A stretch of 46,243 bases of DNA from a virus (taxonomy: Duplodnaviria > Heunggongvirae > Uroviricota > Caudoviricetes), in IMG/VR virus record IMGVR_UViG_2537562192_000013; one strand, given 5' to 3'. A program made the position numbers. Position 1 is the first letter of the stretch. Each line of letters starts with the position of its first letter. Positions 24,001-27,000 of this stretch are shown here, piece by piece.

Positions 24001-27000
24001 GGTCTCTGTTAATACGGGAATACGGCGACAATACCGCGCCATGGATAATAAGGTCGCTCAACACACTGGCTGTAATGCAGCCGATACCATGCGGCATTTA
24101 GCGGCATTCACAGCACACTCCACGGTTAGCTCTTCATTCGAGGCATCCACCCGAAAGACCCGGGAGTATGATTGCGTACATTTACCACTGAACGTACCTT
24201 CAACAAGAACACGACCAGGCTGCAAAACACGGAACGGAATTGTTCCCTGAAAAGGCTTTACGGTTACCAGTAATTTCTTCATATATCCTCCGGATAATAA
24301 AAAGACTACTTAATGCACTGAGTACGGATATATTCCTGCGCCCCTTCCAGTTGCTTCTGCATCGTCATCAGCCGCTCTCTGAGGGTGAAATAATCCCGTG
24401 TAACGGTGTCTGCCAGTTGGGGGCCGGTTGCATTATCCACGCGGGCGGTGCCGGTGGCTTCACGCACGGGGCCTGGACAGGTGGCGTTGATACGCAGGCG
24501 CTTACGACCAGCGGCAACGTCAGCGCGAAGAATTTCATTTTCAGCTCTCGCATCGGCTAATTCCCTCGAGTATTTTGCATCGAGCGCAGCAACATCACGC
24601 TGGCGCACCTGCATATCAGTAATGGTTGCGTTTGCCAGCTCCAGCTCTCTGGCTTTTTTATCGCGCTGCGCTTTGTAAGTGATGGCGTTATCGCGGTAAT
24701 GATTCAGCCCCAGACTAAGCGCACCACAGGCCACCAGCAGAGCAATGATGACCACACACAGAACGCGGTTCATTTCACCACCAACGGATTGCCCAGATCA
24801 GAACAGCAATGGCTATAATACGAATGGCAAAAGCTGCCGCTCTTGTTAAATCCAGACTGGCTGGCGTCTCCACTTCAATGCCTTTCATAATGGACAACCT
24901 CAGAAAGAATCTTTTATACTTCCTCACAGGGAAAGCACCTCCCTCACCATAATTTCTCCCTTGCCTTATCCAAGGTCAGAAACACAAAACCCCGCTTGCT
25001 GCCAACAAACGGGGTTTTTACTTTTATTCACTTAGGTTTTGCCAGTTCGCAGGATTTCGTGTTATCCGTCCGCGTTGGTCAACGTCATTTTTCAGCAAAA
25101 TATTCTGCTTATCTGTCGATTCCCCAGCACGCCAGCGCGCTCTCCTGGTCACGACGGGATACCTGACCGTAACAGTTATTTGAGCGAATACGGCAGTCTC
25201 TGCCACCGTCCTTAATCCACCAGCGAATCGCTTCGCATGCTCCCCTGCGATCACCTGCATTAATTCGTCTGTAAAACGTCGACGGGAAACACTTACCGGG
25301 ACCAATGTTGTACGGACAGAATGACGCGATCCCCGCTTTCTGGGGTTCGGTCAGCGGCACTCTGATGTTTTTCTCCACCCACGTCAGCGCTTTATCACGC
25401 TCAATGGCGTTAACCTGGTCGCATTTTTCCTTCGACAGCTTCATGCCAGGAATCACAGGCTTACCATCCACCTGGGTGGCACCTCGGCAGATGGTCCAGA
25501 TACCCGCACCATCACGGTATGCTGTGGTGTGGTTGCCTTCTTTTTCGTCAAGAAACTGGTCGAGAATATCAGGCGCAGGCGCCCCTGCGGCAATCAGCGC
25601 CAGAACGGCAGCCGACAGGCCGTATCTGATTTTTGCGTTCATGGATATTTATCAGGATTTATCGGTTCCGAATCCCTGGATATGTTAAGTCTTCAGCCCG
25701 CCAGTGGTGGGCACTGGCGTTTTATCTGCTGGCTGAAAATATATCTGACAATTCCAGTCGAGGATTAACCATGCATAACCATCAACATAATTATGATTTA
25801 TGCCTGCAAGCCATAAATGAGCGGGTAAAATCGGAATGCCTCTTACTCCTCCCGCAAGAACACAAAGCAGTAAAGGCCATTCAGGCTGAACCGTATGGAG
25901 CTCTCACTACTGCAACTCTCAGTATTATATCCGGAGCATTAACGCCAACCTTGCTCCTTCGCCTGAAAGACAATATAGATGACTGGTTAAATGAAGAATT
26001 AAGTTACCTTGATTGCGAATGGGATAATCATTACGCCAAATCACAAAAAGATCGCCTGTTCAGACAATTATCAGGTAACAGATAACGCCCCTGAACTTAT
26101 ATCCGCCCTTTGAGATAATTCAGCCCCGGCTGGATCCAATCATCTGGCTCAGTCTTAAAGGGTGGAGTATTGAAATCACGAAGAACGGTCTCCCGCACAA
26201 CTGCATCCTTGTCAGCACCACTGGCCAGCGCTTCAATCTCAGCAGCTACCTGAAGATATCCCATGCAACGACCAATACGCTTCATCAGCCCCTGTTTTTT
26301 ATTGTTCTTCAGGTAATCAATGGCAAATTCAATGAGCTCCTCACTGTGCTGGTGCGATGGAGGTGTTACTTTCCCATTTTCTGAGATGGTTATTTTCACA
26401 CCATCACCGGATACAACAAAGGATGGCCGGTTACACTCCCATTCCAGCTCACTGAAATTATCATTATGAATACTGAAACACTCTGCGAGATTTCTGCTCA
26501 TCACTTTCCGACAATAATCGTCAAACGCAGCAAACTGCTCATCGCGGCGTTTTTTTTCATCTTCAGAAGGCATCAGCGTCGACAGTTTTTTATTCAGTTC
26601 AGCAATTTCATTTTCCAGACGACTGAAGCGCTGATTCATTTCTTCATGGTTCATCACCTAATCTCCCCGTGCCGCCTTACGCCGGTCTTCTTTAATCTTG
26701 AAATACAGGTTCGTCAGATATGTCAGCAGCCCAAACAGCAGACTCCCCAGCACGCCTATTGCCGCCCACTGAGACGGGGAAACCCTGTCCAGCAACTGCA
26801 GGAACCAGTAGCCCGTTCCCACCGCTGACGTGGTGTATGACACACCTGTTGTGATTTTTTCCATCTGGTACATACCCCGTCTCCCGCACACGGAAGCTCA
26901 CAACATGAAAAAGGCCAGCAGTACTTTACTGATGGCCCTGACTCACCCTTACAGCATGGTGCCCGGTTCGGGTTGTGCTTCAGTCGCATCAACCACCGGT

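Follow-up and report, generated by a model that had tools for sequence, protein, structure and literature searches.

The locus

The element considered here is a small open reading frame (ORF) in the viral record IMGVR_UViG_2537562192_000013 (Caudoviricetes), whose full stretch of 46,243 nucleotides is referred to as the window. It lies on the minus strand in the lysis region of a lambdoid, Shiga toxin (Stx)-type prophage, between the endolysin gene and the spanin gene Rz, in a segment that is 100% identical to chromosomes of E. coli strains that make Shiga toxin (STEC), e.g. E. coli 2012EL-2448. The textbook lysis cassette consists of holin, endolysin and spanin, and the timing of lysis controls the amount of phage, and in Shiga-toxin phages also of toxin, released by an induced cell. 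In an earlier note the ORF had been described as an unannotated gene of 37 codons with a GAGG ribosome-binding site, encoding one hydrophobic helix and ending 1 nt before Rz, and had been regarded either as an extra lysis-regulating membrane peptide or as a leader for the translation of Rz. This ORF is present on the minus strand as described, together with its GAGG site and the single base between its stop and the ATG of Rz; the evidence from the family, however, moves the start upstream to a GTG codon and lengthens the product from 37 to 50 aa. The features of the gene itself are the following.

24775..24927, minus strand: revised small gene, 50 aa, GTG start (ORF listing, phrog_4493 match, start-codon conservation, dN/dS)
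24775..24888, minus strand: 37-codon ORF (114 nt) of the earlier note, with the internal ATG 24888 as a possible secondary start; the same start is used by PGAP
24898..24901, minus strand: GAGG Shine-Dalgarno-like motif 9 nt 5' of ATG 24888, doubling as Leu-Arg codons (ctG AGG) of the 50-aa frame
24936..24944, minus strand: Shine-Dalgarno sequence AGGGAGGTG for GTG 24927, whose 5' portion forms a 6-bp hairpin with TTCCCT (24933-24928) in the minimum-free-energy fold
24775..24783, minus strand: TGG TGG TGA, the last two Trp codons and the stop, which also form the Rz Shine-Dalgarno sequence (GGTGGTGA); the same junction is found before Rz, before a 60-aa lipoprotein gene and in Yersinia

Evidence for a protein-coding gene

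Codon-position variability was evaluated for 83 loci of the window type, which reduce to 40 unique haplotypes; within the 37-codon ORF the variable sites fall on codon positions 1, 2 and 3 in a ratio of 7/0/24. A second group of copies resides in phiP27-type cassettes, with 78% nucleotide and ≈ 92% protein identity over the core. When the ratio of nonsynonymous to synonymous substitution rates (dN/dS) was computed against these copies by the Nei-Gojobori method, the sense frame gave a value of ≈ 0.03 for the core of 37 codons (19 synonymous and 5 nonsynonymous differences, Sd and Nd) and ≈ 0.10 for the N-terminal extension, while the remaining two sense frames gave 1.6-6.9. The antisense frame with shared third codon positions reached 0.08, as compared to 0.03 in the sense direction, which is the expected echo of the sense signal because the third positions are common to both. 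The small ORF is a true protein-coding gene under strong purifying selection.

Two other interpretations of the same nucleotides were rejected. The antisense ORF 24809..24952 (plus strand) would encode a hydrophilic, low-complexity product, and its stop codon is lost in the second group; a structured RNA finds no counterpart in the fold of the ORF region (z = -0.04).

Start codon and annotation

From its stop codon, TGA 24777-24775, the reading frame is open up to GTG 24927, and the 50-aa form consists of MRKYKRFFLRLSI followed by the 37 residues of the shorter ORF. It thereby contains two in-frame starts, GTG 24927 and ATG 24888, each with a Shine-Dalgarno sequence of its own. The residues of MRKYKRFFLRLSI align with the segment M-x-KYKRILLRLT of the E. 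coli and Salmonella homologs, and in 56/56 distinct 5' haplotypes an ATG or GTG stands exactly two codons 5' of KYK; codon 2 of the 50-aa form is hypervariable, and GTG and ATG are exchanged for each other as start codons in loci L093 and L149. Comparison of these 5' haplotypes showed mostly synonymous substitutions in the N-extension, among them a change of AGG to AGA in ≈ 10 loci, which retains the arginine and destroys the internal GAGG motif. The basic amphipathic N-terminus is kept even in relatives of ≤50% identity, such as MTVYRKTFRLRIS, MKLYRKFFRMRLS and MRQYKRILMRLT. On account of the full-length match to phrog_4493, the aligned extension, the invariant start codon, the loss of the internal motif by AGG>AGA changes and the conserved basic N-terminus, translation most likely initiates at GTG 24927 to give 50 aa, as far as can be judged from the sequences.

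The gene had been called unannotated, which does not hold: RefSeq/PGAP lists exactly the coding sequence of 114 nt as WP_000675930.1, 'hypothetical protein', and further annotations exist in GER2 (AVD99013.1) and in phiSTEC1575-Stx2k (57 aa). Among 5,426 complete E. coli genomes, 683 contain the sequence, with 'hypothetical protein' as the annotation in every listed record. The gene as such has been catalogued before, and the present comparison gives a corrected model (24775-24927, 50 aa, GTG start) with defined motifs. Annotation pipelines probably choose the wrong start for this small gene.

Family and predicted protein

In profile comparisons, residues 1-50 of the long form cover positions 1-54 of the 56 positions of phrog_4493 (E = 2.9e-24), and a weaker match is obtained to phrog_1115, the 60-aa family (E = 1.2e-10). 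A profile search of 1.84 billion representative proteins returned 31 clusters at E ≤ 1e-3, i.e., a very narrow family, with Escherichia (including E. marmotae), Salmonella, Klebsiella aerogenes, Yersinia and one entry labelled Achromobacter sp. as named sources; the remaining entries are assembly or metagenome records. Species breadth was taken from the protein databases, and two scans of genome contigs yielded pattern matches, none of which was confirmed by tblastn. By these matches the gene belongs to the narrow enterobacterial prophage family phrog_4493, related to phrog_1115. With phrog_4493, phrog_1115, phrog_3246 and WP_000675930.1 with its relatives the connection is one of direct sequence membership: the profile matches over its full length, and genomic slot and motifs agree. 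They are catalogue entries that carry no function, and the RefSeq start is the shorter, internal one.

No match for the small protein was obtained in Pfam, in the PHROG 'lysis' families, which do match the neighbouring holins, or in the anti-phage defence collection PADLOC, and membership in a defence system was rejected on the latter ground. A survey of the lysis cassettes of Stx phages (PMC8136144) makes no mention of the gene, and the supplements of the ribosome-profiling paper on small genes of O157 Sakai contain no sequence match to it. Two proposals on the origin of the family were likewise dismissed. That allele A arose when an Rz-linked 'IRWW' tail was recently joined to the 60-aa gene is contradicted by distant members, including a 61-aa Yersinia form, which carry RWW together with a full-length transmembrane segment, and homology with the 'allele B' family of H-19B and other Stx phages (phrog_6632) received a probability of ≈ 5% in hhalign, so that the two are treated as analogous only. 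The 61-aa form, MGKYKRFFLRLSMKNG...AVRWW, is encoded by Yersinia strains other than those that carry the prophage remnant described below. In some phiP27-type copies (L150 1174..1455; P0011, P0015, P0022, P0026) the TGA is replaced by TGT, and read-through products of 73-93 aa run out of frame into the lipoprotein gene; the databases list these as separate 'hypothetical proteins'.

Three conserved parts can be distinguished in the family: a basic amphipathic N-helix with the motif x-Y-K/R-K/R-phi-phi-R-phi-R, a linker with the motif G-x-E-x-x-A-P, and a hydrophobic C-terminal helix. A further conserved motif, A-x-A-F-A-I-K/R, is present here, and the C-terminal helix ends with RWW in this subfamily. 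AlphaFold, when supplied with the family alignment, predicts a helix at residues 3-16 (predicted local distance difference test, pLDDT, ≈ 60), a break at IEVET and a second helix at residues 22-49, with pLDDT ≈ 90 over residues 31-50. The single hydrophobic helix of the earlier description is borne out by this model and by the best 19-residue Kyte-Doolittle window of 2.13, beyond which only WW follows; the net charge of the N-terminal flank is +4, and the hydrophobic moment calculated for helix 1 is 0.61. We infer from the model a tail-anchored inner-membrane protein with a cytoplasmic N-terminus, with two or three residues past the membrane helix. The i-spanin architecture of Rz-like proteins, an N-terminal transmembrane domain (TMD) followed by a periplasmic coiled coil of ≈ 100 aa, is not found, as the TMD is followed by 2-3 residues only. 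In common with holins and antiholins, the protein has at least one predicted TMD and a gene in the lysis cassette.

The junction with Rz

One base separates the TGA of the small gene from the Rz start, ATG 24773-24771. In E. coli as well as in Yersinia, the distance from the stop to the next ATG is exactly 1 nt in all copies ending in RWW; the 60-aa paralogs ending in '...ALKS' are found 8-430 nt from Rz. Other spacer variants likewise place the end of a different ORF ≤4 nt from the Rz ATG, for example allele B of H-19B and Stx phages (phrog_6632), an ORF of 28 aa, the gene of a methylase and, in K-12 Qin, R itself. For this reason, coupling to an upstream ORF is the normal state of Rz, and here it is the small gene that supplies it. 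Termination at TGA 24777-24775 would leave a ribosome over the Shine-Dalgarno sequence of Rz, 1 nt away from the ATG, so that the translation of Rz is probably coupled.

Possible upstream control elements

Three further elements have to be considered 5' of the small gene or opposite to it.

24924..24950, minus strand: 8-codon upstream ORF (uORF) MVREVLSL*, with its own Shine-Dalgarno GGGAG at 24960-24956; its TGA overlaps the GTG start of the small gene (GTGA)
24986..25018, both strands: bidirectional intrinsic-terminator hairpin, 15 pairs and T-run, present in every context
24891..24920, plus strand: antisense sigma-70-like promoter match TGGACA-18-TATACT (10/12), speculative

The layout of the uORF is the same in the Salmonella loci L090 and L092; it is not universal in the family, being absent from two subfamilies, and in the E. 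coli 60-aa paralog without uORF the same ATG is directly in frame. With its stop overlapping the GTG start the uORF may feed ribosomes to the small gene, and the arrangement as a whole suggests a relay of three steps, uORF, small gene and Rz.

The terminator-like hairpin noted earlier is real, at 25018..24986 on the minus strand. Its distance from the start of the small gene is 31-86 nt in every context, and the 32 variants of its sequence show partial covariation. Between it and the small gene no promoter was found on the sense strand. Given the terminator upstream and the lack of such a promoter, expression is expected only from Q-antiterminated late transcripts; the sequence thus points to a gene that is probably transcribed by late read-through only, alongside the lysis genes in lytic growth.

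With regard to the opposite strand, a match equivalent to the antisense promoter-like site is found at the same relative position within the small gene of L087 (3053..3026, 9/12), and its -10 element TATACT is the reverse complement of invariant Lys-Tyr codons (AAG TAT A). Both matches point to the bidirectional terminator ≈ 100 nt away, and the predicted RNA (+24926..25035) folds with z = -4.0. The number of promoter-like sequences in the region (1, with 1.2 expected by shuffling) corresponds to chance frequency.

Further upstream, E. coli alleles hardly vary over the ≈ 110 nt 3' of the endolysin stop (window 25050..25108, minus strand, and on to the terminator). This stretch includes a post-endolysin hairpin, CGGAUAACACGAAAUCCUG (25068-25050); Salmonella has the identical core, GCGGATAACACrAAATCC, between diverged flanks. 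The succession of this hairpin, an AU-rich stretch and the terminator has the layout of an Hfq-type small RNA (sRNA) of the 3' untranslated region, with no Rfam match. The Rfam scan of the spacer gave a sub-threshold rimP match on the terminator only; a known sRNA in the spacer was rejected on this result and because the sRNAs AgvB, AsxR and Pas are placed upstream of the holin in the literature.

The lysis cassette and its variants

The neighbouring genes of the window are arranged as follows.

ends ≈ 26658: class II holin
26097..26657, minus strand: 186-aa ORF, phrog_1085, between the holin and endolysin genes; hypothetical in RefSeq
25109..25642, minus strand: R21-like signal-anchor-release (SAR) endolysin (PF00959), the upstream neighbour of the small gene
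335 nt: spacer between endolysin and Rz
24306..24773, minus strand: Rz (i-spanin, 155 aa), the downstream, translationally linked gene; 'lysis protein' in RefSeq
24368..24553, minus strand: Rz1, embedded in Rz

Two additional ORFs are found nearby. One of them (25633..26085, plus strand) lies on the opposite strand after the 186-aa ORF and is hypothetical in RefSeq; the other, of 74 aa, follows Rz (24058..24282, minus strand) and matches positions 100-172 only of the 291-position profile of phrog_2571, by which it is probably a fragment of a larger gene.

A census of ≈ 100 unique contexts revealed four kinds of endolysin upstream of the small gene, i.e., R21-like GH24, Salmonella GH24, M15 peptidase, and GH108 with PG_binding_3, together with at least three holin families in the same cassettes. 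The downstream gene is either Rz or the 60-aa lipoprotein (phrog_7528). Approximately 99% of the contexts lie within lysis cassettes, and these are of unrelated types.

The phiP27-type cassettes, which possess two holins and an M15 or GH108 endolysin, have no recognisable Rz/Rz1. Their Rz slot is occupied by the 60-aa lipoprotein MTRKHWTHRMPRTAAKWALVAILVPFFLVGC... (phrog_7528; loci L149-L172, L173 with phiSTEC1575-Stx2k 22465..22647, and L174 with phiP27 2483..2671), a candidate for the missing outer-membrane step of these cassettes. The spacer between R and Rz is a mosaic hot spot with one to four other small ORFs of a single transmembrane segment, for example phrog_6632 (MFDFSKLIREIRMMAEKLSTWKFILIWLVFVIMASGYFIGQIRWW), phrog_4906 (MSDKLITLAKILCVIVGISFSLMLVA...) and a 28-aa ORF (MSAELIRAMAFAIRIVAIAVLVWAIRWW); they are located at L002/L005 1754..1888 (H-19B and many Stx phages), L028 936..1500 and L065 1373..1504. 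It may also hold an Ant-like gene of 231 aa (L019) or a DNA methylase gene of 311 aa (L077), and the N-extension of the phrog_6632 gene is broken by a TGA in 12 loci. A prophage remnant in Y. enterocolitica (L255-L258 6001..6601, on the chromosome near ail) is widespread and has kept the small ORF and Rz alone, with the 1-nt junction; in L255 the upstream start is replaced by an inverted-repeat element.

Interpretation and alternative explanations

The most probable reading, to which a probability of about 0.6 is assigned, is that of a genuine late-operon gene for a small inner-membrane protein, which occupies the slot between the endolysin and the genes for outer-membrane disruption and most likely has an accessory role in lysis. 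By analogy to known factors, discussed below, the protein is proposed to act at the cytoplasmic-membrane stage of lysis, and could be involved in holin triggering, endolysin release or spanin handling; this is the least certain step. As for the earlier suggestion of a lysis-regulating membrane peptide, a membrane protein of the lysis cassette fits the synteny, and its role in lysis is putative.

Several observations weigh against this reading. With respect to the long form, some lineages (L087, P0179) have an acidic N-extension in place of a basic one, the internal ATG is the choice of PGAP and several gene callers, and between the two groups the nucleotides of the N-extension are more conserved than those of the core (pS 0.28 vs 0.70), which could mirror a non-coding constraint. 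With respect to the role in lysis, the variety of holin and endolysin types and the two downstream genes leave no obvious specific partner, and the small gene is missing from many cassettes (K-12 Qin; methylase-type spacers), so that lysis as such does not depend on it. One copy in Salmonella occurs by itself after tail-fibre genes, with terminators on both sides, and in the Y. enterocolitica remnant the copy lies directly 5' of Rz with holin and endolysin absent. A search of the literature for the family accessions gave no match, and information from experiments (expression or phenotype) was found for no family member.

The gene might instead be expressed from ATG 24888, alone or in addition to GTG 24927, to yield a 37-aa form devoid of the basic N-helix. 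Most members of the family have kept the internal Met, its Shine-Dalgarno sequence is also widely kept (GAGG or GGAGG 5-9 nt 5' of the ATG, made by a rare AGG Arg codon), and the internal start is the only one that looks functional in a few lineages; for these reasons a shorter second product may exist. L087 and P0179 combine a strong internal Shine-Dalgarno sequence with an N-extension that shows no conservation at the protein level, and in many Yersinia strains only the internal start survives. A short or dual-start gene is nevertheless regarded as unlikely, considering the AGG>AGA changes that remove the internal motif and keep the arginine, the invariant upstream start codon, the N-helix conserved in distant relatives, and the PHROG profiles that cover the long form. 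Far less can be said for a pure leader, an ORF that merely delivers ribosomes to the Rz start and whose peptide has no function. The coupling geometry, as part of the earlier proposal, is real and conserved: a single nucleotide intervenes between the stop and the Rz ATG, the codons of WW and the stop form the Rz Shine-Dalgarno sequence, and whichever ORF precedes Rz, be it allele A, B or M4, the methylase gene, or the R gene of Qin and lambda-like cassettes, ends ≤4 nt from its ATG. On comparison of the loci, however, a leader-only role is all but ruled out, since the peptide is under strong selection (dN/dS ≈ 0.03, motifs conserved across genera), the gene occurs independently of Rz elsewhere (60-aa paralogs 8-430 nt away, one stand-alone copy, a lipoprotein gene in place of Rz), and Rz also exists without the small gene.

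A module resembling type I toxins has also to be considered, in which a membrane-active peptide would have its initiation region covered by a cis-antisense RNA (≈ 24927 to 25030, plus strand), begun at the promoter-like site 24891-24920 and terminated at the bidirectional hairpin, that silences leaky expression in the lysogen, with the uORF in a mok-like role. Such a module would account for the antisense -35/-10 matches in the window (10/12) and at the equivalent place in L087 (9/12), for the -10 element within the invariant AAG TAT A codons, for the terminator 31-86 nt upstream in all contexts, whose T-run is better on the antisense side, for the fold of the predicted antisense RNA (z = -4.0) and for the uORF stop overlapping the main start, which resembles hok/mok. 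It is given a low probability because the promoter-like matches occur at chance frequency (1 vs 1.2), with an 18-nt spacer and no extended -10; moreover, no sense promoter for a toxin mRNA and no Rfam match were found, the terminator dominates the fold z-score, the uORF is missing from two subfamilies, and the consistent position in lysis cassettes is unlike that of the scattered known type I loci. Similarly little credence is given to a moron, i.e., a lysogenic-conversion membrane peptide (acting, for example, in superinfection exclusion or the modulation of host membrane proteins) that uses the R-Rz spacer as a permissive insertion site. The mosaic nature of this spacer, with Ant-like and methylase genes and arrays of small transmembrane ORFs, the stand-alone copy in a tail-fibre moron region and the lack of a fixed holin or endolysin partner are in line with it; yet no promoter of its own was found, the gene is always behind a terminator, which makes expression in the lysogen unlikely, ≈ 99% of the contexts are inside lysis cassettes of unrelated types, and PADLOC gave no match.

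An extension of the preferred reading, a late gene for an accessory membrane protein of lysis, would make the family an unrecognised class of lysis component: a tail-anchored peptide of ≈ 50 aa, expressed late only, possibly with dual-start isoforms, that tunes the triggering of the holin or the activation of the spanins, in prophages of the Stx type and related ones, through a relay of uORF, small gene and Rz, perhaps silenced by cis-antisense RNA in lysogens. This wider picture is distinctly unlikely in its entirety. The family resides in the lysis cassette of ≈ 1/8 of the complete E. coli genomes, and analogous small transmembrane genes fill the same slot in most Stx phages.

Comparison with known systems

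In hok/mok/sok, as at the present locus, a hydrophobic peptide of ≈ 50 aa is preceded by a short leader ORF overlapping the main start, and a candidate cis-antisense RNA here covers the initiation region. The differences are considerable: there is no similarity in sequence or in Rfam, no toxin promoter was found, the antisense promoter is a candidate, the position in the lysis cassette is fixed, and the TMD is C-terminal instead of N-terminal. Another parallel is offered by the dual-start proteins S105/S107 of lambda and S68/S71 of phage 21, membrane proteins of the lysis cassette for which, as here, two candidate starts in one frame would give forms with and without a positively charged N-terminal segment. 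If both starts of the small gene were used, its two forms could, by analogy to these holin/antiholin pairs, have different or opposing activities; the window protein differs from them in having a single TMD, at its C-terminus, and matches no holin family, and its dual start is a candidate.

Two small membrane proteins outside the classical scheme come to mind as analogues, not as homologs. The releasin gp25 of phage Mu, 99 aa long, combines an acidic cytoplasmic domain with a TMD at its N-terminus (N-out/C-in) (PMC9239132). Like the window protein as predicted, it is small, membrane-tethered, mostly cytoplasmic, encoded with the lysis genes and associated with several endolysin classes, and it is neither holin, endolysin nor spanin (PMC9239132); in contrast, the window protein has a C-terminal anchor, a basic N-helix and an acidic linker. 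It does not belong to the releasin family DUF2730/PF10805, in view of the missing Pfam match and the C-terminal TMD, and shows no sequence relationship with Mu gp25. The second analogue is Lcc6 from Shewanella LambdaSo, a transmembrane protein of 65 aa that is needed at the pinholin step of lysis (bioRxiv 10.1101/2024.01.23.576932). As a small protein with a single transmembrane segment in a lambdoid phage with pinholin and SAR endolysin, it represents a precedent for a fourth lysis factor. Compared by description, Lcc6 differs in its N-terminal TMD, in the location of its gene near int/xis outside the lysis cassette, and in being essential, whereas the window family would be accessory. Taken together, Mu releasin and LambdaSo Lcc6 demonstrate that small membrane proteins can be extra, overlooked lysis factors.

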